A DNA stretch of 64,000 bases from Magnetococcales bacterium (GTDB lineage Bacteria; Pseudomonadota; Magnetococcia; Magnetococcales; JADGBX01), in the NCBI GenBank assembly GCA_015231265.1, contig JADGBX010000003.1, forward strand, positions 2,829-66,828, written 5' to 3'. A model generated the notes under the pieces. It made no database searches. It worked only from the letters and a program-made list of their open reading frames with translations, and had not been told where the DNA came from. Position numbers and translations under genes: made by a program. Within the stretch, counting starts at the first letter, position 1; each line of letters opens with the position of its first letter. This document shows, piece after piece, positions 36,118 to 55,911 of this stretch.

Positions 36118-37935
36118 ATGAAGGTCTGGAGATGTGTGGCGTTCGTCTTGGGGTTGGTGGTGGCGGTTCTTGCCGTTCCGGTTGAGGCATCCGAGGCTCC
36201 TGCTACGCGGCGCGTTGCCCTTGTGATCGGTAATTGGCACTACACGAACTCCCCGCTGTTCAATCCCGAGCACGATGCGCAGGGCATGTCTGACTCTTTG
36301 AAGCGGTTGGGCTTCGATGTGATCTACCGAACCAACGTGGATAAAAAGGGGTTTCGGCAGGCGGTCAGAGCGTTCGGGGACGCTATTAGGGGCGCCGGTG
36401 TCGGGCTCTTCTATTATGCTGGCCATGGCATTCAGGTGAATGGGCAGAACTATCTGATCCCGGTCGGTGCCGATATTCAGCGGCAAGACGAGGTGATCGA
36501 CGAGGCGATCGCGGCCAATCTGGTGTTGCGAAAGATGGAGCGGGCGAAAAACCGTCTGAACATCGTGATGTTGGATGCTTGCCGTGACAATCCGTTCACA
36601 CGCAGTTGGCGAACGCGGGGAGGGCGTGGCCCTGGTCTCGCGCAAATGGATGCGCCGAGCGGAACGATCATCTCCTATTCGACCTCTCCGGGGTCGGTCG
36701 CCTCGGACGGCACCGGCAAGAATAGCCCCTACACCAAACATCTCCTGCACAACATGAAGGTGCCGGGACTGGCGATTGAGCAGCTGTTCAAACGGGTTCG
36801 CATCGGAGTTGATGAAGAGACGGCGGGACGGCAGACTCCTTGGGAGTCCTCTTCATTGAAAGGGGATTTTTTCTTCACGCCTGGCAGTCAGGGTTCGCAT
36901 GCTCCAGCATCGGCTTCCTCGATAGGTCCGTTTTCTGACGAAAGGGAGGCTCAGGAGAGCCTGGATGGGAGGATCGCCCGCCTTTCGCAAGCCCTCATGA
37001 AATCTGCTCGAAACAGATCGGTCTACGTCCACCCCATCGTGGAGTCTACACAGCGCTATGCTTCCGATTTTTCACGCTATTTAACGCTAAGAATCAAGAC
37101 ATTCATGGTGAACTCCAGATCAGTCACGGTGATGGATGGCAGCCAACTGCTTGCCCTTCTGGCACGTCATCAACAGGAGAGTTCGGTCCAGAGAGTGTTG
37201 GGGAGCGGAGGCCGTATCGATGAGGCCTCTCTGCTTGGAGCCGATCTGCTGCTGGATGGGATCTACTTCGTCAATGACACGTCGGTGGATGTCACCCTCT
37301 CTCTCAAGACACTCTCCGGTGAGACCGTGACGACGATTGATGAGAGCTTTCCCAAAGCGCGCATCACAATGCCTCTCGATAATGCCGAGCTGAAAACCGT
37401 GGCGCGCATCGCTGATACGGTCCAGCAGTCCGGTGATGCCGATGTTGTCCATCTCAGCACCACCCGTGGTGGAAGGCATCCCGTCTACCTGGAGGGGGAG
37501 ACCATCCAGTTCATGACACGTGTGACACGTCCGCTGTTCATCTATCTCTATGGTTACAACGCTAAGGGTGAGGTGGTGCGGCTCTATCCGGGTGATGGCG
37601 AGCAGCAGGTTCCTTTGCGTCCCGGGCGGGTGCATCGAACACCCGATGACGATGACTCTTGGGAGATCGGTGTTACCCCTCCATTCGGAACCGATACTGT
37701 GAAACTGTTTGCCAGTACCCAAGCGTTGCCCGTTCCCCGCTTGGATCAAACAGTCGCTTCCAAGCGCATTGAAACCGTTGGGCAGGGTGTTTCACGTACA
37801 AGAGCGATTAAGCCGAGCCCATTGTCCAAAAGAATCAATCCTGTGGATCTTGTCGACTACTTTCGGGAGCAGGCACGTCGATTGGATGCTGAACTGTTTG
37901 AAGATAGCGTTGTCGTTGAGACTCGTAAGTTGTAA
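36118..37935 (+). CDS. Secreted caspase-family (peptidase C14) protein with a C-terminal DUF4384-like domain
   Basis: RVALVIGNWHYTN, YYAGHGIQ (His codon 36424-36426) and VMLDACRDNPF (Cys codon 36580-36582). The C-terminal region has the DUF4384 look (IYLYGYNAKGEVVRLYP). The track ORF starts at GTG 36091; ATG 36118 gives signal peptide MKVWRCVAFVLGLVVAVLAVPVEA. Confidence 0.8.
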   Translation: MKVWRCVAFVLGLVVAVLAVPVEASEAPATRRVALVIGNWHYTNSPLFNPEHDAQGMSDSLKRLGFDVIYRTNVDKKGFRQAVRAFGDAIRGAGVGLFYYAGHGIQVNGQNYLIPVGADIQRQDEVIDEAIAANLVLRKMERAKNRLNIVMLDACRDNPFTRSWRTRGGRGPGLAQMDAPSGTIISYSTSPGSVASDGTGKNSPYTKHLLHNMKVPGLAIEQLFKRVRIGVDEETAGRQTPWESSSLKGDFFFTPGSQGSHAPASASSIGPFSDEREAQESLDGRIARLSQALMKSARNRSVYVHPIVESTQRYASDFSRYLTLRIKTFMVNSRSVTVMDGSQLLALLARHQQESSVQRVLGSGGRIDEASLLGADLLLDGIYFVNDTSVDVTLSLKTLSGETVTTIDESFPKARITMPLDNAELKTVARIADTVQQSGDADVVHLSTTRGGRHPVYLEGETIQFMTRVTRPLFIYLYGYNAKGEVVRLYPGDGEQQVPLRPGRVHRTPDDDDSWEIGVTPPFGTDTVKLFASTQALPVPRLDQTVASKRIETVGQGVSRTRAIKPSPLSKRINPVDLVDYFREQARRLDAELFEDSVVVETRKL

Positions 37936-41378: not shown

Positions 41379-43604
41379 ATGCCTGCAAATATTACTAAAT
41401 CTCTTTGTGCGGTGGTTCTTCTGATAGGTACGCAAGGGTGCACGGTCGTACCCGTCCCCATTCCGGTGCAGGAGCGGGTCTCGACGGCGATTGCCGACCG
41501 TCATGCCATGTTCACTGCTCAGAAACCGATCGTGGCACCTTTGACGCTTTCCGAAGCCATGGCGCGCGCCATTGCGTACAATCTGGATCATCGCCTGAAA
41601 TTAATGGAGGGGGTTCTTGCCAGCAATCAGCTGACTTCAGCACGTATGGAGCTTCTCCCCCGCTTGGCCGCTTCTGCCGGCTACATCAATCGCTCGAATC
41701 TGAACGCCTCGTCGAGTCGTACCCTGCTGACTGGCCGGGACTCTTCCGAACCCTCCATCTCATCCGATCGCAGTCAGGAGACGGCCGACCTGGCCCTGAG
41801 TTGGAACATCCTGGACTTCGGTGTCAGTTACTATCAGGCCAAACAGGAGAGCGATCGGCTCCTGATCACCCGCGAACGGCGCCGCAAGGTGGTGCACAAT
41901 CTCATGAGAGAGGTGCGTTTGGCCTATTGGCAGGCTGCCAGTGCCGAGCGGGTACAGTCGCAACTGATCGTGGTTATGAAGCAGGCGGAAACGGCGCTTA
42001 AAAGCGCTCGTTTGATCGAAGAGGAGCGCCTTGGAGCCCCTTTGGCCGCCTTGCGCTACCGTCGATCCCTTCTGGAGATCATCCGGCAGTTGGAGGAGCT
42101 GAGTGCCGAGATGTCTCTGGCTCGGATCACCCTCTCCGCTTTGATCAATGTCGAGCCTGGGACGCCGTTTACTCTGGCCGGAGCGGATGAGTCTCCAACA
42201 CCGGTTATTCTCCCTGATTTGGATCTGGAACAGCTTGAAAACCTGGCACTGTCGCAACGGCCCGAGCTGCGTGAAAAGGATTATGAGGTTCGCATCAATG
42301 CCACCGAGGTCAAAAAGACACTGGTGCGCATGTTGCCCGGTTTGGAGCTGAATCTGTCCGGAAACTACGACGGCAACAGTTTTCTGGTCAATCAGGGCTG
42401 GACTCAGGCCGGTTTGCGGGTGGCGTTCAATCTCTTCAATCTCTTCACCGTGTCGGACAAGGTTGCCGTTGTCGAGACACAGGGAGTGGTAACCAGAACA
42501 CAGCGTATGGCCCTGACCATGGCGGTATTGAGTCAGGTCCATATCGCTTGGCAGCAGTATCATGCGGCGCTTCGGCAGTTTGAACATGCCGAAGAGTTGT
42601 TCGACGTGAACCGGCAGATGCTGACCCACATGATCAACCGTGGCAAGGTCGACATGCAGCACGGGTTGGAGGAGATTCGCAGTTCGGTCAATACGATCAC
42701 CGCACTTCTGCAGAGAGACCAGTCCCATGCCCGCTGTCAGGAGGCGATGGGCCGACTCATCACGGCATTGGGTGTCGACCCCCTTCCCGAAACGATTGAA
42801 TCCAACGATCTCGAAAGCCTCACCCGCATGATCGAAACGATGATGGTGCAGTGGGAAAAGGAGGGATTTGCACTACAAGAGGGAGTGGTGCTTGATACAT
42901 CTCCAACTGTTTCGAGCGCTTCGCCGGTCGTCGATCCATCGGAGTTTTTGGGGGAAGCGAAGGAGATCCAACCGGGTCTGCATGGTCAGTCGGAGACGGT
43001 TGATCTGCCGGAAGAGCCGGGTCTGCATGATCAGTCGGAGACGGTTGATCTGCCGAAAGAGGGTGTGAAAACAGATTCTGAAATAGCCTCGGATCAGCAC
43101 GAACGGTTGGAGACGTTTGACCCGTTGGAAGAGAGTGTGAAAACGGATTCTGAAAGACCCTTGGAACAGCAAGATTCCACTGAAAATGTCGCAGATGAAT
43201 CCTCTGTGGAGTGGGTAGCCGTCGATACTGCTGTTGAAGCGGTAGAAGCCGATCATCCAGTTGAAGATGTTGTTGTCGAACCTTCCGTAGCAGAGGTTGC
43301 AGTCACGTTACCGGTTGCAGAGGGTGTCGAGAATGATCCTGTAGAAGATGGCAACGGGATGAAGTCTGGTTACGTTATTCAAGCCGGTGCCTATACCCGC
43401 ATGCGTGATGCCCGGATGTGGGAGACGCGTTTGATCGACAAAGGCTATGCCCCCACGATCCACACCGTTCAAAACTCGGCTGGGGAGAGCTGGCACTTTC
43501 TCTACATCAAACGGTTCGAAGGTTTCTCGAAAGCGAGGAATTTCTTGAAGGATTTTACGAGAAAAGAGAACATGGACGCATTCATTCACCCGCTCGGTCC
43601 GTAG
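41379..43604 (+). CDS. TolC-family outer membrane factor fused to an acidic repeat linker and a C-terminal SPOR domain
   Basis: Likely lipoprotein start MPANITKSLCAVVLLIGTQGC (the track ORF starts at TTG 41355). About 470 aa are OEP-type (LTLSEAMARAIAYNLDHRLK...). An Asp/Glu-rich repeat region follows. The last roughly 75 aa, GYVIQAGAYTRMRDARMWETRLIDKGYAPTIHTV..WHFLYIKRFEGFSKARNFLKDF, look like a SPOR fold. Confidence 0.75.
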   Translation: MPANITKSLCAVVLLIGTQGCTVVPVPIPVQERVSTAIADRHAMFTAQKPIVAPLTLSEAMARAIAYNLDHRLKLMEGVLASNQLTSARMELLPRLAASAGYINRSNLNASSSRTLLTGRDSSEPSISSDRSQETADLALSWNILDFGVSYYQAKQESDRLLITRERRRKVVHNLMREVRLAYWQAASAERVQSQLIVVMKQAETALKSARLIEEERLGAPLAALRYRRSLLEIIRQLEELSAEMSLARITLSALINVEPGTPFTLAGADESPTPVILPDLDLEQLENLALSQRPELREKDYEVRINATEVKKTLVRMLPGLELNLSGNYDGNSFLVNQGWTQAGLRVAFNLFNLFTVSDKVAVVETQGVVTRTQRMALTMAVLSQVHIAWQQYHAALRQFEHAEELFDVNRQMLTHMINRGKVDMQHGLEEIRSSVNTITALLQRDQSHARCQEAMGRLITALGVDPLPETIESNDLESLTRMIETMMVQWEKEGFALQEGVVLDTSPTVSSASPVVDPSEFLGEAKEIQPGLHGQSETVDLPEEPGLHDQSETVDLPKEGVKTDSEIASDQHERLETFDPLEESVKTDSERPLEQQDSTENVADESSVEWVAVDTAVEAVEADHPVEDVVVEPSVAEVAVTLPVAEGVENDPVEDGNGMKSGYVIQAGAYTRMRDARMWETRLIDKGYAPTIHTVQNSAGESWHFLYIKRFEGFSKARNFLKDFTRKENMDAFIHPLGP
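42972..43061 (+). repeat. 45-bp in-frame tandem repeat x2 in the TolC-SPOR linker (PGLHGQSETVDLPEE)
   Basis: 42972-43016 and 43017-43061 differ at only a few positions. A second shorter repeat (gtgtgaaaacagattctgaaa) recurs about 70 nt later. Confidence 0.8.
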
Positions 43605-43647
43605 AGGCGACGCCTTCGATAGAGGCAGAATTGATCCTCTTTGTACA

Positions 43648-46600
43648 GTGTCAAGATGGGAACGGGATATGTCGGATCATAAGCGCGCATCGGACGACTA
43701 CCGATCCGGTCCCAGCCTGCGGCTGATGGCCTTGGAACCGCGTGTACTGCTGGATGGTGCTGCGCTTGTTGCCGGTGTGGAGGTGGTTGCTGAAACCGAG
43801 TGCCCGGAACGATCGCATAGCTGTGTTGTTGATTCGGATGATAGAGCGACGCAGGCGGTTCCTGGGGAGAGTGGGAACGAGGGGTATGCCGGGCCGCCAC
43901 CGGAGAATCGGGAGGTCGTGTTCATCGATGCAGGGGTTGAGGATCAGGCGACACTTCTCAAAGATGTGACGCCTCACGCCGACATCGTATTCCTTGATCC
44001 ACGTCGCGACGGTATCCGCCAAATCAGTCAAGCCCTGGCAGGTCGTACCTCCGTTGAAGCGATCCACCTGATCTCCCATGGGGGAGCGGGCTCCTTGCAA
44101 CTGGGCAGTGGTACGCTCTCTGCCGAGACGCTTGCCCAGCACACGGAATCCCTCCGAAGTTGGCGTCACGCTCTGACCGCCGATGCCGATATTCTGATCT
44201 ACGGCTGCACTGTCGCTCAGGGTGAGCGGGGTGAGCGCTTCGTGCAGGCGTTGTCACACCACACCGGAGCCGACGTCGCCGCCTCCGATGATACCACCGG
44301 CAGCCGGGAGGGTGCCGATTGGACCCTGGAGTGGCGTACCGGCACCATCGAGTCGGTGATGGCCCTGGATAGTCGTGCCATGGCCGACTACTCCCAAACC
44401 CTTGCCACCATCACCGTCACCAATACCAACGACTCCGGAAGCGGCAGCTTTCGCCAAGCCATCACCGATGCCTCCAGCGGCGATACCATCACCTTCGATG
44501 GATCTCTCTCCGGTCAGACCATCAACATGACCAGCGGTCAGTATGCGCTTACCAAGGATCTCACCATCGACGGTGATCTCAACGACGACAACACCCCGGA
44601 CATCATCCTGGATGCCAGCGCCAGTAACTCCCGCATTTTCAACAACAGTGCCACCGTCTCCATCACCGGTCTGACCCTGCAGAACGCTGATGGCAACATC
44701 GGCAGTGGCGGGGGTATCTTCAACAGCGGCACCCTGACCCTCAGTGATTCGGCCCTGAGCAACATCACCGCTGACGGAACCAGTGGCGATGGTGGGGGTA
44801 TCCTGAGCTATGGTACTCTGACCATCTCCAACACCTCCTTCACCAATACGAGTTCCCTCGATAACGGCGGTGCCATCCGGTTTTGGGCCTCCGGCAAAAC
44901 CCTGACCATTACCGACAGTACGTTCACCAGTAACAGTGCCCCCCGGGGTGGTGCGATTCTGGTGACTGACGGAAATGCCTACATCGCCAACAGCACCTTT
45001 ACCAGCAACAGTGCCTCATCGGTAGGTGGTGCCATCTACTCGCTGGCGGGTGTGACGACGGTGGTCGGCAGCACCTTCACCAGCAACACGGCTGTCCAAG
45101 GCGGTGCCTTTTACAACGCGGCAACGCTGGACATCATCGACAGCACCATAACCGGCAACAGCACGACACTGACAACCGGACAATATTTGGGGGGGGGCAT
45201 TCGTCAGAAAGGGGGGACGGTTCGAGTCTATACCAGCACCATCGACAACAACACCGCAGGGCTTGGTGGTGGTATCTATGTCGGTGGCGGCGATGTGGAA
45301 CTCTACAGAACCACGATCTCCGGCAATACCGCAGGAACGACCGGTGCCGGTATCCGACAACGCTACGCCAGTGGTGATCTGACCATCGTCAGCAGCACCA
45401 TCGCTGGAAACAATGGGGATGGGCTCGTCATTCATGGTGATGCGGATTCCACGGTCATTACCAACAGCATCTTCGCCGACAATACCGGCGTCGACATCAA
45501 TGGCAACGTCACCAACTCCAATTTCAACATCATCGAAGATGCCGGTTCGGCCACCTTTACTGCTCAGGCCAACGACATCACCGGGGCCGACCCGTCGTTG
45601 GCGGCTTTGGCGACGGTGGCTGGCTACCCGACTCAGATTCATGCCCTCAACGGTGGCAGTAACGCCCTCAACAGTGGGGTAGGGGGGGCGGATCGGGGCG
45701 TGACCGTCACCAACTCCATCCCGGTTCTGGCCAACCTGGCAGGCGACACGCTCGCCTATACCGAAGACGATGCCGCGACGGTGATCGAGCAGGGTAGCGA
45801 CGCTACCGTCACCGACAGCGACTCCGGTAATTTCAATACCGGAACGCTCACCGTATCGATCTCCGCCAACCGGGTCAGCACCGAAGATGTTTTGTCGATC
45901 AACAATCAGGGCACCGGCTCCGGTCAGATTGGCCTCTCCGGTACGACGGTGACCTATGAAGGGGCCACCATCGGTACGATGACTGGGGGGAGCGGCACCG
46001 ATGATCTGGTGGTGACCTTTTCGGAGTTTTCCACGGCGACGGCGGTGACGGCTCTGCTCAAGAATATCACCTATCAGAACAGTAACACCGGTGATCCCTC
46101 CACCAATGCTCGCACGGTGGATTTCGTCGTCACCGACGGCGATGGTGGTACATCGGCTACGTCCAGTGCAACCGTCAACATCACGGCCGTCAACGACGCC
46201 CCGACCATCAGTGCCCTCTCCGGTGACGATCTGAGTTATGAAGCCGGAGACGGCGCCAAGGTGATCGATCAGGGGGGCAATGCTTCGGTCGGTGATGTGG
46301 ACTCCACCGACTTCAATGGCGGCACGCTCACGGTCTCCATCAGCAGCAATCGGGTCTCCGGTGAGGATCAACTGGCGATACGCAATCAGGGCACCGCCGC
46401 CGGGGAGATTGGTACGACCGGTGCCAACGTCACCTATGGCGGCGTGGTGATCGGCACCTTTACCGGCGGGACGGGAACCAATGATCTGGTCATTACCTTC
46501 AACGCCGCCTCCACACCGACAGCAGCCGGAGTCCTGCTTCAGAACATCACCTACGAGGATACCAACTCCGACACACCTTCCGAGAACACCCGCACCATCC

Positions 46601-48399
46601 AGTTCGTACTCACCGATGGAGATGGTGGAACCTCCGCCACGTACAACACCACGGTGACCTGGGTGATTCCTGTTGTGGTTCCGGCCCCGCCTCCCGCCAT
46701 GCCTCCTCCCGACGTCGGGGGGGATGAGATGGATGATCCGGAAGAGGAGGAGTTCGTCATCCACAATGACGAGCTGCTGACCGGAGCCCGCCAAGAGGAT
46801 CCCAAACAGCGCCACTGGCCCTGGGAGCGGTTTTCGCTCTATTCGAGCTGGATTCCCCATGAAGGGCGCTATACCAGCCACATCCAGGAGCTGATCGACT
46901 CTTTGAACCGGACCCTTCAGTGGTCCTATGAACCGGGTGAAATCGACAGTTCCCAGCGTTTGATCACCAAACATGTGCAGGGGATGGAGGGACTCGAAAA
47001 GGAGGGCCGTCACAAACCGGGTGCTACCGGGCTTCAGATCCAGGAAGATCTGTCATCCGATCTCGTAGAGGATCTGGAACTGCGCTCTAAAGCCGAAGGT
47101 GGGTTGATCACCCTGGAGAAGACCGATGCCGAACCGGTGGAGGAGGAGGAAGCCCAGAAGGAATCAGCGCCGAAAGAGGGTGTCGTATCCCCAGGAACAA
47201 CCGGGCCCGTGCGTGTCGAGTCGGGCATTCCGGACAGGTCACTTCCCGCTTCCGGAACCTTCACTATTCCGATTCCCAAGGACGCCTTTGCCCATCGCGA
47301 TGCCAACACCTCTCTCACCCTGCATGGCCGATTAGCGGATGGTTCGCCGCTGCCGGAGTGGCTGTCACTGGATGTCAAGGAGCGGCACTTCATCAGCCGG
47401 GGAGATAACCAAGAACACGGCACCTGGCAGATCGTGCTGACGGCACGGGATACCAATGGCAATGAAGCCACGATCACCCTGGAATTGACCATCGGAACCG
47501 ATTTTCGCAGCCTTGAGGTAGAGCCCGCATCCGCAGATGGGGCCATGCTCTCGCCGCCGGTGGGCAAACCGGCACTGAGTGCCCAGTTCCGGGATCATGG
47601 CCGTTCTGCCTTTGATCGTGCCCGGTCGGCACTGTTGTCGCTGTTGGTTCCGGTGCTTTGCACCCTGGTCCTGTTTCCGGACCCGGTTCAGGCGACTGAT
47701 GCTCCGGTTCGCGCTGCTTTCAAACGGGACGCCCCGGTACGCGCTCAGGTGCGATCCACCCGGCGAACGGTCCTCTCGGCGGAGGTGTCGGCCCGAGTGG
47801 TGCGCATTGAACACAAAGCCGGGGAACGGTTTGCAAAAGGAGCCCTGCTGGTCACGCTGGACTGTGCGATCCAGCAGGCCCAGTTGAAACAGGCGCAGGC
47901 GGCCCACCACTTGGCTCTGAAGAAGCGTGCTGCCAACGCCCGTCTCGCCGATTTGCTCTCAAGCACACCCCTTGAAGTGGAAACCACCGAGGCGGAAGCT
48001 GCGCGTACTGAGGCGAATGCCTTCATCCTGGAAAAACAGGTCGAGCGATGCCGGATCATGGCCCCCTTTTCCGGGCGTATCGTCGAATGGAAGACCGACC
48101 CGCACCGCTTCGTTCAAGCTGGACAGGCGTTGGTAGAGATCGTCGATGATCGCCATCTGGAACTCACCTTTCTGGTGCCCTCCCGCCGCATTAATACACT
48201 GAAAGCGGGTCACCCTCTGCGTCTGACGGTGGATGAGACCGGCAAGAATTATCAGGCGGTTCTGGTGCGACGGGGGGCAGTAGTGGATCCGGTAGGGCAG
48301 CGGATTCGGGTGACGGCGGAGATTCGCAGCGATCACACCGATCTTCTGCCCGGCATGAGCGGCTCCATCACGTTTATCGACCGGAAACAGGTCCACTGA
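43648..48399 (+). CDS. Giant surface-type protein: DUF4347 N-terminus, beta-helix repeats, two cadherin-like modules and an Ig-like module, continuing in frame into a TM segment plus a complete small MFP (HlyD-type) module
   Basis: 1583 aa. LEPRVLLDGAA plus VVFIDAGVEDQATLLKDV...IHLISHGGAGSLQLGS...ADILIYGCTVAQGERG is DUF4347. GGAI/GGGI-type beta-helix repeats follow. Two roughly 155-aa modules (about 45712-46200 and 46201-46660) end in VTDGDGGTSAT. Residues 1300-1583 (from ATG 47545) have a TM segment LLSLLVPVLCTLVLF and lipoyl-hairpin halves VSARVVRIEHKAGERFAKGALLVTLD and IMAPFSGRIVEW. Confidence 0.8.
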   Translation: MSRWERDMSDHKRASDDYRSGPSLRLMALEPRVLLDGAALVAGVEVVAETECPERSHSCVVDSDDRATQAVPGESGNEGYAGPPPENREVVFIDAGVEDQATLLKDVTPHADIVFLDPRRDGIRQISQALAGRTSVEAIHLISHGGAGSLQLGSGTLSAETLAQHTESLRSWRHALTADADILIYGCTVAQGERGERFVQALSHHTGADVAASDDTTGSREGADWTLEWRTGTIESVMALDSRAMADYSQTLATITVTNTNDSGSGSFRQAITDASSGDTITFDGSLSGQTINMTSGQYALTKDLTIDGDLNDDNTPDIILDASASNSRIFNNSATVSITGLTLQNADGNIGSGGGIFNSGTLTLSDSALSNITADGTSGDGGGILSYGTLTISNTSFTNTSSLDNGGAIRFWASGKTLTITDSTFTSNSAPRGGAILVTDGNAYIANSTFTSNSASSVGGAIYSLAGVTTVVGSTFTSNTAVQGGAFYNAATLDIIDSTITGNSTTLTTGQYLGGGIRQKGGTVRVYTSTIDNNTAGLGGGIYVGGGDVELYRTTISGNTAGTTGAGIRQRYASGDLTIVSSTIAGNNGDGLVIHGDADSTVITNSIFADNTGVDINGNVTNSNFNIIEDAGSATFTAQANDITGADPSLAALATVAGYPTQIHALNGGSNALNSGVGGADRGVTVTNSIPVLANLAGDTLAYTEDDAATVIEQGSDATVTDSDSGNFNTGTLTVSISANRVSTEDVLSINNQGTGSGQIGLSGTTVTYEGATIGTMTGGSGTDDLVVTFSEFSTATAVTALLKNITYQNSNTGDPSTNARTVDFVVTDGDGGTSATSSATVNITAVNDAPTISALSGDDLSYEAGDGAKVIDQGGNASVGDVDSTDFNGGTLTVSISSNRVSGEDQLAIRNQGTAAGEIGTTGANVTYGGVVIGTFTGGTGTNDLVITFNAASTPTAAGVLLQNITYEDTNSDTPSENTRTIQFVLTDGDGGTSATYNTTVTWVIPVVVPAPPPAMPPPDVGGDEMDDPEEEEFVIHNDELLTGARQEDPKQRHWPWERFSLYSSWIPHEGRYTSHIQELIDSLNRTLQWSYEPGEIDSSQRLITKHVQGMEGLEKEGRHKPGATGLQIQEDLSSDLVEDLELRSKAEGGLITLEKTDAEPVEEEEAQKESAPKEGVVSPGTTGPVRVESGIPDRSLPASGTFTIPIPKDAFAHRDANTSLTLHGRLADGSPLPEWLSLDVKERHFISRGDNQEHGTWQIVLTARDTNGNEATITLELTIGTDFRSLEVEPASADGAMLSPPVGKPALSAQFRDHGRSAFDRARSALLSLLVPVLCTLVLFPDPVQATDAPVRAAFKRDAPVRAQVRSTRRTVLSAEVSARVVRIEHKAGERFAKGALLVTLDCAIQQAQLKQAQAAHHLALKKRAANARLADLLSSTPLEVETTEAEAARTEANAFILEKQVERCRIMAPFSGRIVEWKTDPHRFVQAGQALVEIVDDRHLELTFLVPSRRINTLKAGHPLRLTVDETGKNYQAVLVRRGAVVDPVGQRIRVTAEIRSDHTDLLPGMSGSITFIDRKQVH

Positions 48400-48400
48400 C

Positions 48401-49744
48401 GTGGGGCGGACCGATCAGCTCGAATCGTTGAGCACGCTTCTGCAACTGGAGCGTGAAGCGCGGCAGGCCGACAGCGTATCCGCCCTCGCGTTTCTGATGG
48501 TCAACGGTAGTCACGCTCTGACTCCCTACAGACAGGCGTGCCTCTGGCAGGCCGACTCTCATGGATCAGGCAGAATCATCGCTTTCTCCGGCCAGGAGAA
48601 CCACGACCCCGACGCCCCGTTTCCGCTCTGGATGAATCGTCTTCTCACTCGGCTTCACCAACAGCATGACGTCGATTTCCGCCCTATGACCGCGCAGGAC
48701 CTCGCCGCTGATGATGCCACGGCGTGGGAGGAGTGGTTGCCGCCCCACGCGCTCTGGATCGTCTTGAAGTCTCCCGAGGGTCATAGGCTCGGCGGTCTGT
48801 TTCTGGCTCGGGATCACCCTTGGACAGCGGCGAATGAGCCGCTTCTCAGCCATCTCGTCGAGAGCTACGGCCACGCCTGGAACGCTCTGACCCTCCGCCG
48901 CAAGAGGCTGTTCACCTGGCCCGTTGATCGTTTCAGAGCAGGGCGCAGAATCCTTCTTTTCGTTGCAGTCGTCGGGACTCTGATGATACCCGTCCATCAA
49001 TCAACTCTGGCGCCCGCCTCGGTCACGGCTGTCGAACCGACCATCGTCCGCTCCGCCATGGATGGTGTCGTCGATGAGATTCTCGTCGAGCCCAATCAGC
49101 GTGTAGAGGTGGGAACGCCTCTGCTTCGATTGGATGATCGTACCCTGGCCAACCGGTTGGCGGTCACCCATCGTATCCTGGAGGCGTCTCGGACCGAATT
49201 GCGTCAGTTGGAGCAGACTCTTCTTACCCATGGCAGTAGCCATGAGCCGTTGATTCGACTCGAGGGGAGAATTCAGCAGACCCTGGTCGAACGTGATCAT
49301 CTGCGCGCTCTGCTCGAACGCATCGAGATTCGAGCCGAACGGTCGGGTGTGGTCATCATGGACCGGCAGGAGAGCTGGCAGGGAAGACCCGTGGTGACGG
49401 GCCAACGTATCCTGATGATTGCGGACCCAAGTGATACGGAGATCTCCATCACGCTGCCGCTGGAGAACGCCATTCCACTGCCGGATGCTGCACCCGTCAC
49501 TCTGCATCTCAGTTCGGATCCGAGCCGCTCCCATGCGGGGCGACTGCGGTATCGGGGCTTTCAACCGGTTGTCCAACCCGAGGGCTTCGCCGCCTATCCG
49601 TTGAAGGCACGTTTCGTGGACCACACGAGCCGTCCCCGCCTGGGGCTTCGGGGAACAGTCACGATTCAGGGTGAGAAGATCCCCTTGTTTTACTATCTGT
49701 TCCGACGCCCTGTGTCGGCGTTCCGGCGTTTAACGGGGTTCTGA
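48401..49744 (+). CDS. HlyD-family membrane fusion protein with a roughly 190-aa N-terminal cytoplasmic (GAF-like?) domain
   Basis: 447 aa with a GTG start 1 nt after the upstream stop. TM segment ILLFVAVVGTLMIPV, then VRSAMDGVVDEILVEPNQRVEVGTPLLRLD, a coiled coil, and IRAERSGVVIM. Confidence 0.8.
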   Translation: MGRTDQLESLSTLLQLEREARQADSVSALAFLMVNGSHALTPYRQACLWQADSHGSGRIIAFSGQENHDPDAPFPLWMNRLLTRLHQQHDVDFRPMTAQDLAADDATAWEEWLPPHALWIVLKSPEGHRLGGLFLARDHPWTAANEPLLSHLVESYGHAWNALTLRRKRLFTWPVDRFRAGRRILLFVAVVGTLMIPVHQSTLAPASVTAVEPTIVRSAMDGVVDEILVEPNQRVEVGTPLLRLDDRTLANRLAVTHRILEASRTELRQLEQTLLTHGSSHEPLIRLEGRIQQTLVERDHLRALLERIEIRAERSGVVIMDRQESWQGRPVVTGQRILMIADPSDTEISITLPLENAIPLPDAAPVTLHLSSDPSRSHAGRLRYRGFQPVVQPEGFAAYPLKARFVDHTSRPRLGLRGTVTIQGEKIPLFYYLFRRPVSAFRRLTGF

Positions 49745-49745
49745 C

Positions 49746-51848
49746 GTGCACAGTCCCCACCACACGTCCCTCAGGGAGGAGTTGACGCTCCACGTCGGCC
49801 CCAAGACCAGGGATGGTTCTCCCACCTGGTCATTGCATGATCCGGTGAACAACCGATTCTACCGTCTTGACTGGCCGGTGTTCGAGATCCTTGCCCGCTG
49901 GTCGCTGGCAGATCCCACTCGTATTATCGATGACATCAATCGCACCACCACGTTGCAGATCGATAGCACCCATCTGGCTGACGTTGAGAGATTTCTCAAC
50001 CAGCATCAACTCCTCAACACTTTGGGACAATCCAGCTCTTCCCGAGTCAGGAAACCCCGGCGTGGATGGATGATGCGTCTTCTGCACGGCTATCTCTTCT
50101 TTCGGATCCCACTGGTGCGTCCCGAGGGATTTCTCAACCGGACGCTGCCTCTGGTCGATCGGGTGTTCTCACGTGGATTTCTGTTGTTGATGCTCGTGAT
50201 CGGTGGGGTGGGGCTCTATCAGATTTCAAGGCAATGGGATCTCTTCCTGGCCTCCTTTGCCGAGATCGCAACGCTTCAAGGTGCTCTGGGCATGGCCGCT
50301 GCCCTGGTGCTGACAAAAACTCTCCACGAACTGGGCCATGCCTATGCGGCCCGCCGATTCGGGTGTCATGTTCCCGTGATGGGCGTGGCCTTTCTCGTGA
50401 TGTGGCCGGTGCTCTACACCGATGTCACCGATAGCTGGAAGCTGAACGACAAGCGTCAGCGCATGTTGGTCGGCAGTGCAGGAATGCTCTCTGAACTGGC
50501 TCTGGCTTCCATAGCCACTTTGGCCTGGAATCATGTATCACCGGGTCCACTCCAGAACACGCTCTTCTTCATCGCCGTCAGTAGTTGGCTGGTGAGTCTG
50601 ACCATCAACGCGAATCCCTTCATGAAGTTCGATGGCTACTTCGTGCTGTCGGATTGGCTTGAGGTCGAGAATCTGCACGAACGGGCGACGGCTCTGGGGC
50701 AGTGGCGTCTGCGTGAGATGCTCTGGGGATTGGGCGATTCTCCCCCCGAACCCCTCTCACCCCGCATGCGGCGCTCCATGATTCTCTTTGCATGGGCTAC
50801 CTGGATCTATCGTCTGATCCTGTTTCTCGGCATTGCGTTGTTGGTCTATCAGTTATTTTTCAAACTGTTGGGACTGTTTCTGATGGTTGTGGAGGTTGTT
50901 TGGTTCATCATCCGTCCGGTATTCATGGAGCTGCGCCGTTGGACGACGCCACGCTATCGGCCCAGACTCAACAGCCATGCGGCCATCACCATTCTTGCCC
51001 TTTGTGTTGTTGCCATCATCACGGCGCTTCCCATCACCACCCGACTGGCCTTACCGGCTATTTACAAGCCGGAACAACAGAGAGTCCTCTACGCCCCCAC
51101 ATCCGGGCAGGTAGAGAGCCTCCCGGCCGCCCTTGGAGACTCCGTTGCCAAGGGGGATCCACTGATCACCCTCTTCGATCCGGACATGGCCTTTTCCATT
51201 GAACAGAGCAGCCGATTGATTGCCATGCTGGAGAAGCAGCTTGCCATTCAGGGCATGGGAGACACCGCTGGCAGTGACGCATTTCCCTTGCTCAGAAAGG
51301 AGCTGGAAACCGCATACACACGGCGGCAGGGCTTATTTGAACAGCGTGATCGATTGGTGTTGACCGCCCCCTTCGACGGACGCATTGCTCGGATCATGGT
51401 GCAGGAGCAGGGCTGGGTCAGGGAGAAGAGTCCTTTGATTGAAATGACCAATATTGAGCAGTGGGTGGTGGAGGCGTACCTACCCGAGTCGGATTATGCT
51501 GCTGTTCGAATCGGTGATCCCGCACGGTTTCGGCCAGAAATGCCCGAGGCTCCGGAGTGGTCACTTCGTGTCAGTGAGATTAACACCGCTGCGGTCGCAC
51601 ACCTCTCTGAACCGATACTCTCATCACGCTACGGTGGTGATGTCGCCACCTGGCCGGGAGTTCGGGATAACAAACTGGTTCCCGTGTCGAATCTGTACCG
51701 TCTTCGCTTGAGCATCGTATCCACTGCTGTCGGCTCAGATTGGCCGGTCATGCGGGGCACGGTGATGATCTCCGGAGATCGGCAGTCTCTCTATTCAATT
51801 GTGCGTTCATGGATCACCGATGTTCTGATTCAGGAGAGTGTATTTTAG
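49746..51848 (+). CDS. Polytopic site-2-protease (peptidase M50) domain fused to a C-terminal MFP-like periplasmic domain
   Basis: 700 aa with a GTG start 1 nt after the upstream stop. HELGH at residues 194-198 (50325-50339) lies in a TM context, and NANPFMKFDGY is the N..P....DG motif of S2P. There are several TM segments. The C-terminal roughly 250 aa have lipoyl-like halves YAPTSGQVESLPAALGDSVAKGDPLITL and LTAPFDGRIARIMV. Confidence 0.8.
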   Translation: MHSPHHTSLREELTLHVGPKTRDGSPTWSLHDPVNNRFYRLDWPVFEILARWSLADPTRIIDDINRTTTLQIDSTHLADVERFLNQHQLLNTLGQSSSSRVRKPRRGWMMRLLHGYLFFRIPLVRPEGFLNRTLPLVDRVFSRGFLLLMLVIGGVGLYQISRQWDLFLASFAEIATLQGALGMAAALVLTKTLHELGHAYAARRFGCHVPVMGVAFLVMWPVLYTDVTDSWKLNDKRQRMLVGSAGMLSELALASIATLAWNHVSPGPLQNTLFFIAVSSWLVSLTINANPFMKFDGYFVLSDWLEVENLHERATALGQWRLREMLWGLGDSPPEPLSPRMRRSMILFAWATWIYRLILFLGIALLVYQLFFKLLGLFLMVVEVVWFIIRPVFMELRRWTTPRYRPRLNSHAAITILALCVVAIITALPITTRLALPAIYKPEQQRVLYAPTSGQVESLPAALGDSVAKGDPLITLFDPDMAFSIEQSSRLIAMLEKQLAIQGMGDTAGSDAFPLLRKELETAYTRRQGLFEQRDRLVLTAPFDGRIARIMVQEQGWVREKSPLIEMTNIEQWVVEAYLPESDYAAVRIGDPARFRPEMPEAPEWSLRVSEINTAAVAHLSEPILSSRYGGDVATWPGVRDNKLVPVSNLYRLRLSIVSTAVGSDWPVMRGTVMISGDRQSLYSIVRSWITDVLIQESVF

Positions 51849-52246
51849 AGCGTGATGACATGTGCAAGGGGATGGCTGTTGCGGGCTTCTTTTTATAAGC
51901 ACTTTTGATACTGTAGGTGTCCTATGAATAGTCATTCTGTTCGGAGGTGGTGAAATGGGGTTGCCCATTGCGATACCCATTGCCACTCACGTGACAACGG
52001 TTACCGCTGCCAACCAACCAGAGGGATTCTTCGGTGTTAGTGGGCTCAATCATGCCATAATCAATACCACCAATACTGACACCAGGGAGGACCACACGCT
52101 CCGGGGATTGGCGTCGGAGGGTGTCGTGTCCCGATCTATCCTTGCTTCTCTATACAGGATGGCAAACAGCACGATTTCAGCTACCTTGGAACCGGACGCA
52201 ACGCCGGCGCCTTCTGTCGATCAGAATCACCACGGGGAGTGTCATA

Positions 52247-54190
52247 ATGTGCGGAATCTGCGGGGTCTTCCACTTCTCCTCCCAGCGAACTCCGTCCCGT
52301 CGGCGCCTGGTGCACATGTCGGATACCCTCTCCCATCGTGGTCCCGATGACGAGGGGTATCTTCTGGATGGCCCCACTGGGCTCGGTCACAAACGGTTGA
52401 GCATTCTGGATCTCTCCCCCACGGCACACCAACCCATGGCCAGCAGAGACCAGCGCTACTGGATCGTCTTCAATGGCGAGATCTACAACTTCCGGGAACT
52501 GCGGCAGGCGCTGAAACAAACCGGACACGCATTTCGCAGTACAGGCGACACGGAAGTTCTGTTGACGATGATGACAGTACACGGTACCGATGCGTTGCCC
52601 CGTCTCAACGGCATGTTCGCCTTTGCCCTCTGGGATCGTCGTGACCGCACTCTGCTTCTGGCTCGCGATCCATTCGGAATCAAGCCGCTCTATTACACCA
52701 TTGATGACGGTCGGCTCATCTTCGCTTCGGAGATGAAGGCGATTCTGGCCTATCTGGGACGCGGGGCCGAACTGAACTCCGCCGGACTGTTGGAGACAGT
52801 GACCTTCCAATACTGCTTGGACGACAAGACTCTCTACCGGAATATTCACAAGGTGCCACCGGGCCACGCCATGCGTTTCGACCAAGAGGGCGCGGTTCAT
52901 ACCGTGCGTTACTGGTCACCCGGTTTTGACAAATGCGAGGATGACGAAGCTGTTGCTGTCAAACGGGTCCGGGAGATTCTCGACGACTCTATCGCTTTGC
53001 AACTCCGTAGTGATGTCGATGTTGGGTGCCACCTGAGTGGCGGTATCGATTCCGCTTCCATCGTCGGGCTGGCCACGCGCCGATCCCCCAACCGTCTTAA
53101 GAGTTTCACAGCCGGGTTTTCGGAAGGAGGTGTCTTCAACGATACCCATCACGCCGGAATCTCGGCTGAGCACTTCGGCACCGACCATGCGGAGATCTTT
53201 CCTACTCCCGAGCGGTTCGACTCCCGCTTTCACGCCCTGATGTGGGCACTGGAGGAGCCGGTGGCCGGCAACGGCTCCTTTGCTCAGGATGCAGTCTCCG
53301 AACTCGCCTCTCGACATGTCAAGGTGGTACTGGGCGGGCAAGGGGCAGATGAGCTGGCCGGTGGCTATGTTCGCTACTATCTTCTCGCTTTGGAAGAGGC
53401 GCTTAAATCGGAGATCTCCGGCACCCCGCATCCGGAGATGCCGCTGTCAGAACTGCAGAAAAATCTCCCTCAACTGCAGGCCTATACCCCCCTGATGCAG
53501 AGTTTCTGGTCCGATGGGCTGTTTCAATCAGAGAGCGAGCGTTTCCTCCGGCTCATCACCCGACAGCCGAATATTCAGGCGCTTCTGCATCCGGATCTGC
53601 ATTCGGAACTGCAGATCCATAATCCTTTGGCGCGGTTCCATGCCGTCTATGCCGCTCCGGATGCCCCGGAGATGTTGGACAGAATGCTCCACTTCGAAAC
53701 CACGGTCTGGCTGCCTGCTCTGCTGCAAGTCGAGGACCGCACCTCCATGGCGTGGTCTCTGGAGTCGCGGGTACCGTTTCTCGATACGCGGTTGGCAGAC
53801 TACCTCTTTTCGCTACCAACCTCGGTGAAGTTCAAACACGGCCGTCTGAAACACCTGATCCGAGCCGCCATGGCAGATCTTCTCCCCCCCACCATTCTGG
53901 AACGTCGCAACAAGGTGGGCTTTCCCGTGCCGTTAAGCCACTGGTTCTCCGGTCCGCTACGAGAGTGGCTGCACGATCTACTGCTGGATCGAAGAACCCT
54001 GGAGCGTGGTCTCTTTCGGCAGACGTCGATTGAGGCAGCGATTTCTAACGACAGCTCCTTCAACCGCTCGATCTGGGGGCTGATCTGCATGGAGTCCTGT
54101 CTGCGTCAGATGGTCGACCATAATCCGGCATTGACCTCCATGGATGACGTGCGTGACCGTCCGATCATGACCCCATCCACTCCCCTCTGA
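52247..54190 (+). CDS. Asparagine synthase (glutamine-hydrolysing)-like amidotransferase, of the type found in glycan clusters
   Basis: The start is chosen at MCGICGVF (Ntn Cys2 of class II amidotransferases). GHKRLSILD and the synthetase-domain SGGIDS PP-loop are present. The track ORF begins 126 nt upstream with no support. Confidence 0.85.
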   Translation: MCGICGVFHFSSQRTPSRRRLVHMSDTLSHRGPDDEGYLLDGPTGLGHKRLSILDLSPTAHQPMASRDQRYWIVFNGEIYNFRELRQALKQTGHAFRSTGDTEVLLTMMTVHGTDALPRLNGMFAFALWDRRDRTLLLARDPFGIKPLYYTIDDGRLIFASEMKAILAYLGRGAELNSAGLLETVTFQYCLDDKTLYRNIHKVPPGHAMRFDQEGAVHTVRYWSPGFDKCEDDEAVAVKRVREILDDSIALQLRSDVDVGCHLSGGIDSASIVGLATRRSPNRLKSFTAGFSEGGVFNDTHHAGISAEHFGTDHAEIFPTPERFDSRFHALMWALEEPVAGNGSFAQDAVSELASRHVKVVLGGQGADELAGGYVRYYLLALEEALKSEISGTPHPEMPLSELQKNLPQLQAYTPLMQSFWSDGLFQSESERFLRLITRQPNIQALLHPDLHSELQIHNPLARFHAVYAAPDAPEMLDRMLHFETTVWLPALLQVEDRTSMAWSLESRVPFLDTRLADYLFSLPTSVKFKHGRLKHLIRAAMADLLPPTILERRNKVGFPVPLSHWFSGPLREWLHDLLLDRRTLERGLFRQTSIEAAISNDSSFNRSIWGLICMESCLRQMVDHNPALTSMDDVRDRPIMTPSTPL

Positions 54191-54214
54191 TAGTGCCGCA
54201 AATCAGAGCTGTAT

Positions 54215-55798
54215 TCAGGCGCAATCGTCCTGTCTCTGCCAATAACCCTGACTGGCCATGTGGATGGCAGAGAACTCTTTCCCGGAACCAACCGTTTCAA
54301 GAACGTGGCCGGTTTTTGGTCGTGTCTCGTCGTCAATCGCCAGATCGGGGCCCAGATGTATGGTCCGGACATGCGTCCCCGGAGGGGTTCCTTTACCGGT
54401 AATCAGGAGCCAGACCAGAAACCGCTTGATCCAGTTTCCCAGGGTGACGTTGCGCATCAGTGTCATGTTGAGCAGTCGCAACACCGTAAACTCCAGCGGC
54501 GACGGCAAGCGGTGCTTGACCGGTGAGAGCGGCACCTCTACCCGAACCTGCTCCGCTTCGACCACCACCCGGTGATTACGCCTGTATCCCTGAGAACAGA
54601 AAAGAGTCCCCTTTCGATCACGCAGAACCACACCGCCATCGATACGGACTGGCGTGCTCTTTCCATCCTTGGAAAAGTGGTAGCAGACGCCTCCCTTGTT
54701 CAAACTGATGACCGTGTAGTGGCGAGAACTGCCATCCACAAGCAGACCGGCCTCGGGAAAGTGGCGTCTGAAGGGGCTCTGCAGGTAGGCGGGCACCGGA
54801 TCCGTTGACAGACACTCTTTGGCACCCTCCTCAGCCCATATTGCGGCTGCCCAGCAGTAGGCGTTGAACATGGGTGGCAGGTTGTGTTCGTCCATCACCT
54901 CAAGGGTGACCGTGGCCATACGACGAATGGAATCGCGCATGGGTGCCGCCATTGAAGCCGCTCCCCGATTGCCGGAGGCGGCTAGAAACTCGGGTCCGGC
55001 AGGATAGTACAATCGGGTGTTCCGGCTACCGTAGATTCCCCCGAATGAGCCGTCCGGATGGATGAAACAGGAGAGAAACACAATGGCCCGGTGCAGTGGT
55101 TCCGCCAATCCCCATGCTGGACGCAATCGGTGTAGATCGGCGAGATAATAGAGGCAGAGCGTCTGATAGCCGGGATCGGCTCCTTCGTACTCCTGGAACC
55201 AGCCCTCCTCCGAGCCGTGTTTGAGAATGCGGTCGACGAAGAACCGAGCCCGATCATCCACCGATTCGCCGCTGAGATCACTCCATTTGACCAACCCGGC
55301 GGCAGCGGTGGCGAGATGGTTGGAGATCATGCCGTGATATTCGTCCACCCGCACCAGAAATCCAACGGCGGGGCGGATCGTCTCCAGCCACCGTTCACGC
55401 GTTTCCGAATCGATATGTCCCTCCAGACACTCAACTGCCGACAGCAGGTCATACACCACGAGCGCCGTGACGCAAAACGAGGACTCATGGGGAAAGGACT
55501 CCACATAACTGCCGTTGCTGTCCCGTAGCGATTCCGCACACTGAAATATCGCCTCGATCCGCCGCAGCGCCGCCGTGGGTGCGATCCACTCCGGGAGCAG
55601 ATCGTGTTGCAACAGCCTGGCCAAACCATGGGCTGCGCCGAGAAAAGTCCCATTGCCGAAATCGATCAATTTCCAGGCCCATCGTTTACGATCCCCCTGC
55701 CCAAGCGTGGTGCTGAAAGGGTCTCGGTCGTAGAGCGCCAACATCCTGGGTAGAGTGCGATGAATCTGCTCTAGATAGGGGTTGTCAGAATCATTCAC
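54215..55798 (-). CDS. Hypothetical protein, possibly an alpha/alpha-toroid plus beta-sandwich (heparinase II/III-like) fold
   Basis: 527-aa ORF with coding-like composition, convergent with the AsnB-like gene. The helical repeat N-terminal part (GAAHGLARL, NHLATAAAGLV, DPGYQTLCLYYLADL) and a beta-rich C-terminus were judged by eye only. Confidence 0.3.
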   Translation of the reverse strand: MNDSDNPYLEQIHRTLPRMLALYDRDPFSTTLGQGDRKRWAWKLIDFGNGTFLGAAHGLARLLQHDLLPEWIAPTAALRRIEAIFQCAESLRDSNGSYVESFPHESSFCVTALVVYDLLSAVECLEGHIDSETRERWLETIRPAVGFLVRVDEYHGMISNHLATAAAGLVKWSDLSGESVDDRARFFVDRILKHGSEEGWFQEYEGADPGYQTLCLYYLADLHRLRPAWGLAEPLHRAIVFLSCFIHPDGSFGGIYGSRNTRLYYPAGPEFLAASGNRGAASMAAPMRDSIRRMATVTLEVMDEHNLPPMFNAYCWAAAIWAEEGAKECLSTDPVPAYLQSPFRRHFPEAGLLVDGSSRHYTVISLNKGGVCYHFSKDGKSTPVRIDGGVVLRDRKGTLFCSQGYRRNHRVVVEAEQVRVEVPLSPVKHRLPSPLEFTVLRLLNMTLMRNVTLGNWIKRFLVWLLITGKGTPPGTHVRTIHLGPDLAIDDETRPKTGHVLETVGSGKEFSAIHMASQGYWQRQDDCA

Positions 55799-55867
55799 AG
55801 GGAGATCGTCCTGAATTCTAAGCGTGGTAGGGGATAAAGGGGACTGGGATCATACCATTTGGCATTT

Positions 55868-55911
55868 GGGCGTGTCCTCAATGCGCCCGAAACCGCGCTG
55901 GAGTGCCGCCA
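55868..55911 (-). repeat. Partial MITE-family end (left-end type) plus about 30 nt of internal homology
   Basis: gggcgtgtcctcaat then gcgcccgaaaccgcgctggagtgccgccag, compared with 11141-11185 of the complete element. No matching right end nearby. Confidence 0.6.

Follow-up and report, generated by a model that had tools for sequence, protein, structure and literature searches.

The DNA analysed here is a 64-kb stretch, hereafter called the window, of a contig from a Magnetococcales metagenome-assembled genome (MAG). It contains a cluster of four genes encoding a TolC-family outer-membrane factor (OMF), a giant protein with a DUF4347 domain and two further proteins built around membrane fusion protein (MFP) modules, one of which includes a site-2 protease (S2P) of the M50 family. 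From the comparison with related loci we lean towards the view that this cluster is a type A copy of an undescribed and widespread leader-peptidase-coupled system for the secretion or processing of giant surface proteins. The giant is the likely substrate, since it adjoins the cassette, carries a conserved N-terminal leader with the motif LEPR, and the type of leader co-varies with the type of cassette. A sister form of the cassette, type B, encodes a SecA-like ATPase, and the presence of this motor argues that the machine moves polypeptide.

An initial annotation of the window, made from the letters alone, had proposed a protease-coupled export or processing machine lacking a motor. The idea of a protease-coupled machine appears strengthened because the protease carries a putative recognition element of the kind found in pathways for peptides that are made by the ribosome and modified after translation (RiPP recognition element, RRE), because the adjacent giants bear the LEPR leader and because leader and cassette subtypes co-vary. 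The lack of a motor, on the other hand, is true of type A and not of the whole family, since type B encodes the SecA-like ATPase.

Domain organisation of the cluster

The cluster consists of four plus-strand open reading frames (ORFs) at 41379..43604, 43648..48399, 48401..49744 and 49746..51848, separated by gaps of 43, 1 and 1 nt, which encode in this order the TolC-family channel, a 1583-aa DUF4347 protein with an MFP module at its end, a 447-aa MFP and a 700-aa M50::MFP fusion. The initial annotation had reported this co-directional arrangement, an OMF, a giant DUF4347 protein ending in an MFP module, a second MFP with an additional N-terminal domain and an intact S2P signature joined to an MFP-like domain, and ORF calling and profile searches confirmed each of these features. 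The MFP modules of three of the proteins, with lipoyl, hairpin and beta-barrel domains, were recognised by HlyD_3 and HlyD_D23. Promoter and terminator scans of the region from 40.7 to 52.3 kb returned counts equal to those of shuffled sequence, and the operon boundaries are therefore left undefined by these scans. The G+C content at about 38-42 kb, just upstream of the cluster, is 0.49-0.51 compared with about 0.58.

The fourth protein (49746..51848, +) comprises a PqqD-like domain (about aa 10-90, 49773-50015), a polytopic M50 core with about seven hydrophobic segments (about aa 108-430), an MFP part (about aa 433-680) and a C-terminal helix. It matched Peptidase_M50 with 32 bits (cutoff 27.2) and HlyD_3 with an E-value of 1.7e-15. 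The catalytic motifs HELGH (aa 194-198, 50325-50339), which is the HExxH of a TM helix, and NANPFMKFDG (aa 288-297, 50607-50636), which corresponds to NxxPxxxxDG with the third zinc ligand, are intact, and the residues H194, E195, H198, N288, P291 and D296 are invariant across 50 homologues sharing about 40% identity. The structure 3b4r of the Protein Data Bank (PDB) matches the protease at the HExxH helix, and the MFP part resembles MacA, MexA and EmrA among the Foldseek matches listed. The top curated match was NF041824 (daptide_HExxH), which aligned to aa 53-387 with an E-value of 1.1e-47 and 163 bits against a cutoff of 300, followed by a weaker match to the YydH/LiaK family.

The N-terminal domain of this protein was assigned through its relatives. 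A search of the N-terminal domains of ten type A proteases, including that of the window, returned no Pfam match to PqqD at E<=10. The homologue from the type B locus L088 is collinear with the window protease over aa 24-699 (hhalign E 9.3e-48) and its N-terminal domain passes the PqqD gathering score (25.4 vs 23.4); on account of both results we read the fourth protein as an RRE-M50::MFP. The AlphaFold2 (AF2) model of the 700-aa protein, with a mean confidence (pLDDT) of 88.5, presents three strands followed by three helices at aa 14-86. The RRE of the window protease is thus a prediction by homology and model rather than by direct match, and according to the predicted topology both the RRE and the M50 active site would face the cytoplasm.

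The gene directly upstream (48401..49744, +) encodes the 447-aa protein, whose AF2 model (pLDDT 94.3) consists of a GAF-like domain (aa 1-177), a transmembrane (TM) segment (aa 180-198), a periplasmic MFP part and a conserved C-terminal helix. HlyD_3 matched the C-terminal half (2e-13), and among the Foldseek matches listed the MFP part was closest to MacA and MexA. The N-terminal domain of the window protein gave no Pfam match, and the order of the secondary structure elements in its model (alpha/beta, about 177 aa) fits a GAF domain; in relatives, GAF was detected in a type B homologue with 37.1 bits (cutoff 22.4) and two homologues have a precomputed PF01590 match. Foldseek comparison of the GAF::MFP and protease models with MacA, MexA and EmrA gave E-values from 5e-13 to 5e-16, and for the full-length models of both proteins the matches listed were MFP structures only.

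The giant part of the second ORF occupies 43648..47631 (+), and in the NCBI record (MBF0186443.1, 1576 aa) the protein starts at the ATG at 43669. Its features follow each other as a basic N-terminus, the LEPR leader, DUF4347, beta-helix/PMP-like repeats, cadherin-like repeats, a C-terminal Ig-like domain and a tail motif. DUF4347 (PF14252, E-value 9.7e-59) covers aa 90-252 (43915-44403) with 198 bits, exceeding the gathering score of 24.6, and weak matches were obtained to Chlam_PMP and LEPR-8K. No hydrophobic N-terminal signal or Sec-type signal peptide was found in the window giant, which also gave no Pfam match for RTX repeats.

The leader of the window giant, LEPRVLLDG, lies at aa 29-37 (43732..43758, +) and is the sole occurrence of the motif in six frames of the window. 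The LEPR motif was found once per locus, and only at the N-terminus of a giant, in all 11 loci with this N-terminus in range (10 related loci and the window). The N-termini of the related giants run from a basic stretch through [A/L]LEPR[IMFV][ML]FD[GA]A and an Ala/Val/Asp-rich spacer into DUF4347; that of the giant encoded on an Escherichia coli plasmid is MTTIKNRRLRPRAHRFALESRQLFDGAA. Scored with the LEPR-XLL model NF012209 (cutoff 17), the window giant reached 16.3 bits and the type B giant of L088 27.7 bits. We propose that the LEPR leader is the element recognised by the RRE domain of the protease. At the other end of the protein, the tail motif GKPALSAQF starts at 47563, and most giants adjoining a cassette likewise have a C-terminal Ig-like domain followed by a tail GKPxLSxQ(L/F) located 25-40 residues before the stop.

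In the window, the short MFP module (47632..48399, +) follows in frame with the giant and is made up of a signal-peptide-like segment and lipoyl, hairpin and beta-barrel domains. HlyD_3 (3.9e-17) and RND_mfp (1e-28) matched aa 1357-1576 of the giant, and a hidden Markov model (HMM) built from 50 stand-alone short MFPs matched aa 1332-1578 with an E-value of 1.5e-81; the same HMM matched none of 13 other giants directly abutting a GAF::MFP gene. The giant runs from the tail motif GKPALSAQFRDHGRSAFDRARSA directly into LLSLLVPVLCTLVLFPDPVQA followed by TD, a segment located at 47632-47694, and then into the MFP. Since the stand-alone orthologues begin with Sec-type signal peptides, this hydrophobic stretch was taken as the remnant of a signal peptide. 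About 50 of the type A loci studied have a stand-alone short MFP, and within the type A set the fusion was found only in the window; relatives with the same gene order keep giant and MFP separate, with a 4-nt overlap in L021 and a gap of 6-8 nt in L066 and L037. The initial annotation, which had described the giant as embedded in the operon together with an MFP module, thus holds for the window; elsewhere the third MFP is a separate secreted protein and the giant is usually the first gene.

An assembly artefact of the MAG might account for a fusion that is seen in a single MAG contig among so many loci. We consider this explanation rather unlikely, since the window sequence lacks, relative to L066 and L021, about 10 residues of the giant tail together with the stop codon, the spacer and the N-region of the signal peptide of the MFP, and yet stays in frame; such a junction looks like an in-frame deletion and not a simple frameshift. 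The fusion is therefore probably real but idiosyncratic to this genome, and the remaining findings are independent of it. If it is real, one might speculate that signal peptidase could still release the MFP, so that the giant would retain a C-terminal membrane anchor, and that a giant anchored in this way would be a natural substrate of a site-2 protease.

The first gene of the cluster (41379..43604, +) encodes an OMF with two OEP repeats (Pfam OEP 3e-28), an acidic low-complexity linker and a SPOR domain. The start of this protein is identical in the NCBI record (MBF0186442.1, 741 aa, 'TolC family protein'), and its score against TIGR01844, 47.5 bits, is below the cutoff of 225. The C-terminal SPOR domain, which binds peptidoglycan, lies at about 43365-43583 (+; Pfam 1.1e-05) and had not been mentioned in the initial annotation. 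An acidic repeat linker with a SPOR domain at this end is unusual among TolC-family proteins; several of the OMF orthologues are likewise extended, with lengths of 630-830 aa.

Distribution of the type A cassette and its type B sister

The protease fusion belongs to a large family, with more than 4,000 matches in a word search and 5,684 representative clusters at 50% identity and E<=1e-30. A scan of one genome per species returned 80 type A loci from Alpha-, Beta- and Gammaproteobacteria, Magnetococcales, Nitrospirales and Desulfonema, in which ORFs were called and then labelled by similarity to the window proteins. In 73 of the 74 loci with context, the gene immediately upstream of the protease gene is GAF::MFP, and OMF, short MFP and GAF::MFP are jointly present in 45 of 58 informative loci, the usual order being giant, OMF, short MFP, GAF::MFP and RRE-M50::MFP. 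A giant, defined as an ORF of at least 900 aa, adjoins the cassette in 44/49 informative loci: besides the window, it is co-directional and ends immediately upstream in 38, lies downstream in one, is divergent in two and is separated by intervening genes in two. The large ORFs beside the cassettes of L017 and L034 were rejected as giants, being a polyketide synthase and CarB. When the other ORFs around the type A cassettes were clustered all against all, no further conserved neighbour and no family of small ORFs emerged.

Profile and motif searches detected no ABC-motif ORF and no RND or MFS protein in the whole window, in agreement with the absence of a pump pointed out by the initial annotation, and no conserved ABC, RND or MFS pump was linked to the cassette in 82 type A loci, as would be expected if a gene cluster of this kind were not merely separated from its pump in one genome. 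ABC-motif ORFs were present in only 9 of the 82 distinct loci, at a distance of at least 3 kb or in varied orientation, and were discarded as generic distant ABC genes; the sole adjacent one encodes an AAA_15/AAA_21 ATPase and not a transporter. A SecA match in L016 was likewise rejected as the motor of the cassette because it corresponds to the housekeeping SecA.

The five-gene type A arrangement is also annotated on two plasmids, which carry complete systems: p2 of Azospirillum brasilense Sp7 (NZ_CP012916.1 238256-257247; L171), with a giant of 4,195 aa, and an IncHI1B plasmid of E. coli from human faeces (NZ_CP060066.1 20836-38214; L172, L173), with a giant of 3,668 aa. Of 5,426 complete E. 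coli genomes, 24 carry the cassette at an identity of at least 99%, for the most part on a plasmid; plasmids of Citrobacter, Hafnia and Kosakonia carry it as well, and Cupriavidus metallidurans CH34 and Magnetospirillum gryphiswaldense MSR-1 are further hosts. Everywhere the fusion is annotated as a generic 'HlyD family efflux transporter periplasmic adaptor subunit'. A variant from Desulfonema (L073 3-4732 and L081 20-3033) has the RRE-M50::MFP gene without its GAF::MFP partner, and in L073 this gene lies between a radical-SAM/SPASM gene and a gene for an AAA_15/AAA_21 ATPase, a neighbourhood which suggests a RiPP-like use of the same fusion.

The type B cassette was reached by a search with DUF4347/LEPR N-termini, which returned mostly short fragments of giant genes. 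Five LEPR-positive loci were inspected; two of them had the type B cassette (L087 3495-16670 and L088 2527-21338, both from metagenomes), two were disrupted by insertion sequences and one was without a cassette within 10 kb. A metagenome scan with the L087 and L088 proteases then provided 80 more type B loci (L091-L170). Their genes are ordered as GAF::MFP, RRE-M50::MFP, a truncated SecA-like ATPase, short MFP and the LEPR/DUF4347 giant. The protease gene is followed directly by the SecA-like gene in 73/74 loci and preceded by GAF::MFP in 74/74, and the short MFP is present in 43/46; an OMF was found in none of the 82 type B loci, and the SecA-like gene in none of the type A loci.

The SecA-like protein has about 665 aa and contains the DEAD motor, the preprotein cross-linking domain and the second nucleotide-binding domain. 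Its score against the SecA model was 596 bits, which reaches none of the SecA and SecA2 cutoffs. The protein is cut short behind the motor, the alignment with SecA breaking off near position 600 of 789, so that the helical scaffold/wing region is missing. Because SecA uses this region on SecY, the truncation suggests that the type B protein docks elsewhere.

The leaders of the giants differ in step with the cassettes. Type A giants have the form ALEPRxMFD[GA] in 11/11 cases and type B giants the form EELEPRxL(L/F/Y)SA in 13/14 (Fisher 4e-7, not corrected for phylogeny), a co-variation of leader and machine which is what specific recognition would produce.

Proposed route, alternative explanations and genomic surroundings

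Taken as a leader-peptidase-coupled system, the type A cassette might operate as follows. In the cytoplasm, as in RiPP pathways, the PqqD-like domain would bind the freshly synthesised giant by its LEPR leader, which the M50 domain would then remove at the inner membrane, on its cytoplasmic side. The polypeptide would then pass through a duct of the three adaptors docked to the TolC-like trimer, and the GAF domain might gate the process upon binding of a small cytoplasmic ligand. A broader proposal, which we put forward more tentatively and regard as possible rather than probable, is that types A and B together represent an unrecognised pathway of diderm bacteria for the secretion of giant LEPR-leader proteins, i.e., a new numbered secretion system that is also present on E. 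coli plasmids. In such a pathway the RRE-guided intramembrane metalloprotease::adaptor would form the inner-membrane core and two further adaptors would complete the conduit; the drive would come not from an ABC protein but from the SecA-derived motor in type B and from the proton-motive force or folding outside the cell in type A.

Several observations weigh against a leader-peptidase-coupled route for the giants. The type A genes encode neither an energy source nor an obvious pore in the inner membrane. The usual substrates of site-2 proteases are hydrophobic membrane helices, and the LEPR leader has no hydrophobic character. The PqqD and GAF assignments of the window proteins were made via type B homology and models and not by direct Pfam matches. 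No giant lies near 5 of the 49 informative cassettes, and the LEPR/DUF4347 genes of L086, L089 and L090 have no cassette within 10 kb. The conserved C-terminal tail of the giants implies that the export signal could be C-terminal, and a LEPR protein from Vibrio ends in RTX repeats, typical of substrates of ABC-type type I secretion systems (PMC10868602). The motif R-x3-L-x6-S (RLS), by which the hairpin tip of MFPs binds TolC (PMC3391258), was not matched by a regular expression in the hairpin regions of the three MFP modules; this result carries little weight because RLS is not universal.

The absence of an ATPase from type A would also be explained if the cassette were the outer half of a two-step route, in which the giant crosses the inner membrane via an unlinked motor or translocon, either the housekeeping SecA/SecYEG or an ABC transporter encoded at another site, and the work of the M50::MFP, the further adaptors and the TolC-like channel is limited to its processing and its passage across the outer membrane. 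Parts of such a machine can evidently be supplied in trans, since type B has a SecA-like motor but no OMF, and E. coli HlyBD uses an unlinked TolC. We judge this route unlikely as a replacement for the leader-peptidase-coupled system, with which it overlaps and which it does not exclude: the giant lacks a Sec-type signal peptide, no ABC gene is linked in about 80 loci, and the type B SecA-like protein is devoid of the scaffold/wing region that engages SecY.

Two other explanations would assign a different role to the protease, and both seem improbable to a greater degree. The close relationship of the M50 domain to the daptide and YydH/LiaK leader peptidases, the annotation of remote plasmid homologues of the fusion as PqqD family proteins and the Desulfonema locus L073, where the fusion stands beside a radical-SAM/SPASM gene without GAF::MFP, would all be in line with a RiPP-type system, in which the RRE-M50 trims a small unannotated precursor that the adaptors and TolC export, the giants being neighbours for some other reason. 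However, no family of small ORFs is conserved around the cassette, the LEPR motif occurs on no small ORF in 81 loci, a giant adjoins the great majority of the cassettes as counted above, and its leader subtype co-varies with the cassette subtype, which together make a small precursor very doubtful. We attach equally little probability to a retention and release control similar to LapD/LapG, whereby the giant would be exported otherwise and held at the surface until a GAF-controlled M50 cuts its N-terminal anchor. The predicted ligand-binding cytoplasmic GAF domain on a membrane-spanning partner would suit such a control, as would the GGDEF or EAL genes near some cassettes and the conserved LEPR and DUF4347 N-terminal module, which could act as a plug; but the M50 site and the RRE are predicted to face the cytoplasm while a retained N-terminus would sit in the periplasm, three MFPs and an OMF far exceed the needs of a release switch, and GGDEF genes are found in only 8 of about 80 related loci.

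Concerning earlier work, the initial annotation had stated that no experimentally characterised example of this architecture was known to it, and searches of 8 million full texts, NCBIfam 20.0 and the PDB brought up no description of one. The full-text search retrieved no literature linking M50 with HlyD or TolC, or describing the cassette; NCBIfam has no system-specific model, and the only solved structures are of generic MFP and S2P pieces. Giant LEPR proteins of Chlorochromatium are treated in a 2026 preprint, which mentions a TolC-like gene between them and their lack of known transport signals. What is new here is the leader-binding RRE domain of the protease, the GAF domain of the 447-aa protein and the LEPR leader of the giant, as predicted from sequences and models. 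To our knowledge, the export of proteins of thousands of residues without a Sec signal is understood only for ABC-driven type I secretion, and the cassette offers both a candidate machine and a candidate signal for such giants. If our reading is correct, it would provide the first RRE, a hallmark of RiPP pathways, that recognises a giant protein and the first site-2 protease built into a TolC-dependent envelope complex. The question is directly testable because the cassette occurs in tractable hosts, including E. coli, A. brasilense Sp7, C. metallidurans CH34 and M. gryphiswaldense MSR-1.

Elsewhere in the window, a second OMF (549 aa) is paired with a short MFP with a signal peptide (278 aa) at 11816-14298 (+), with a 4-nt overlap and no adjoining transporter; this MFP was rejected as the 'missing' stand-alone one, since its similarity to type B short MFPs (E about 1e-17) exceeds that to the type A ones. 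A two-partner secretion (TPS) cluster at 23899-34989 (+) encodes a ShlB/FhaC-type transporter that is unusually long (1099 aa, of which about 600 aa precede the POTRA domains), a TPR-CHAT protease-like protein of 734 aa, an exoprotein of 1508 aa with a TPS domain, and a TPR-OmpA protein. An autotransporter (951 aa) followed on the same strand by a TPR-sulfotransferase (561 aa) is located at 2637-7181 (-), LuxR-type regulators at 444-1742 (-) and 7842-8630 (+), and a 614-aa caspase-like protein with Peptidase_C14 and DUF4384, followed by an IalB-family protein, at 36091-37935 (+).

Downstream of the cluster, the region 52121-63971 encodes an AsnB-like amidotransferase closest to the XrtA/PEP-CTERM type, below its cutoff, two large proteins without family match (one with 527 aa, on the minus strand, and one with 900 aa and about 8 TM segments), and further a radical-SAM enzyme that binds B12, a formyltransferase and a GT2 glycosyltransferase. 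It may be a surface-glycan cluster, and this gene set is not conserved beside other cassettes. Near DUF4347 giants of Chromobacterium, Phytobacter, Paludibacterium and Vreelandella, a trio of small genes recurs, whose products are a GNAT acetyltransferase, a roughly 110-aa protein, which is DUF6916 in L085, and one with a phage-tail-collar domain; the trio is downstream of the cassette in L039, L046, L052, L054, L056, L076 and L083, and in L085 it is found at 7648-9101, where the giant is without the LEPR leader and no cassette is nearby.

Comparison with known secretion and processing systems

The protease half of the fusion resembles the RRE-fused S2Ps, such as the daptide MpaP (NF041824) and EpeP/YydH (NF058609), which have a PqqD-like RRE followed by a polytopic M50 with HExxH and NxxPxxxxDG and remove an N-terminal leader, the same role that is proposed here. 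In the daptide enzyme, an N-terminally fused RRE precedes the intramembrane site-2 protease by which the leader peptide is removed (bioRxiv 10.1101/2023.03.08.531785), and EpeP, an M50 protease, is thought to cleave and also export its peptide (PMC10885120). The window protease differs from these enzymes in being below the family cutoff and in having a C-terminal periplasmic MFP, and its cassette occurs in diderm bacteria together with an OMF. Moreover, none of the aminotransferase, dehydrogenase and methyltransferase genes or short precursor ORFs of daptide neighbourhoods is conserved near the cassettes, and RiPP tailoring enzymes and small precursors are likewise missing from the surroundings of the window protease. 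The protease half thus appears to be a relative, and not a member, of the daptide/epipeptide RRE-S2P leader peptidases. The M50 catalytic core and motifs are also those of RseP and SpoIVFB, the former of which also clears signal peptides; unlike these proteins, the window protease is without PDZ or CBS domains and is fused to a putative RRE and an MFP, and its neighbourhood includes no anti-sigma substrate or sigma factor.

As for the envelope components, the adaptors have folds similar to those of the MacAB-, AcrAB- and EmrAB-TolC pumps (MacA, MexA and EmrA; Foldseek E-values down to 5e-16) and share with them an OMF partner, while the inner-membrane partner in the cassette belongs to none of the three known transporter classes. 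The cassette thus lacks the element by which type I and tripartite systems are defined, an ABC, RND or MFS component. The type B gene shares with SecA and the SecA2 accessory secretion systems the DEAD motor, the preprotein cross-linking domain and the second nucleotide-binding domain, but it is truncated, is placed between the M50::MFP and short MFP genes and is absent from type A.

The systems for giant adhesins of type I (LapA/LapBCE with LapD/LapG; SiiE/SiiCDF) are similar with respect to the cargo, as they comprise giant repetitive proteins of beta-helix, cadherin or Ig type encoded beside an OMF and an MFP, with a conserved N-terminal module and a C-terminal tail, and a cytoplasmic ligand sensor on a membrane partner. 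They differ in their ABC transporter, which the cassette does not have, in the RTX repeats, which were not detected here, and in the position of the protease, LapG being periplasmic and the cassette protease being located in the membrane and predicted to face the cytoplasm.

Finally, the peptidase-containing ABC exporters with MFP and TolC, known from bacteriocin or microcin type I secretion (e.g. CvaAB-TolC) and NHLP/Nif11 systems, rely, as is proposed for the cassette, on an N-terminal leader of the cargo, a leader-binding and leader-cleaving domain on the inner-membrane component and an MFP with a TolC-type channel across the envelope. Their protease is a cytoplasmic C39 cysteine protease, whereas the cassette has an intramembrane zinc protease with a putative RRE; the cassette has no ABC domain and has three different MFPs, and its cargo is not a peptide but a protein of 1,500 to more than 4,000 aa. 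By analogy, it is this class of exporters that the cassette would most resemble in the way it works.

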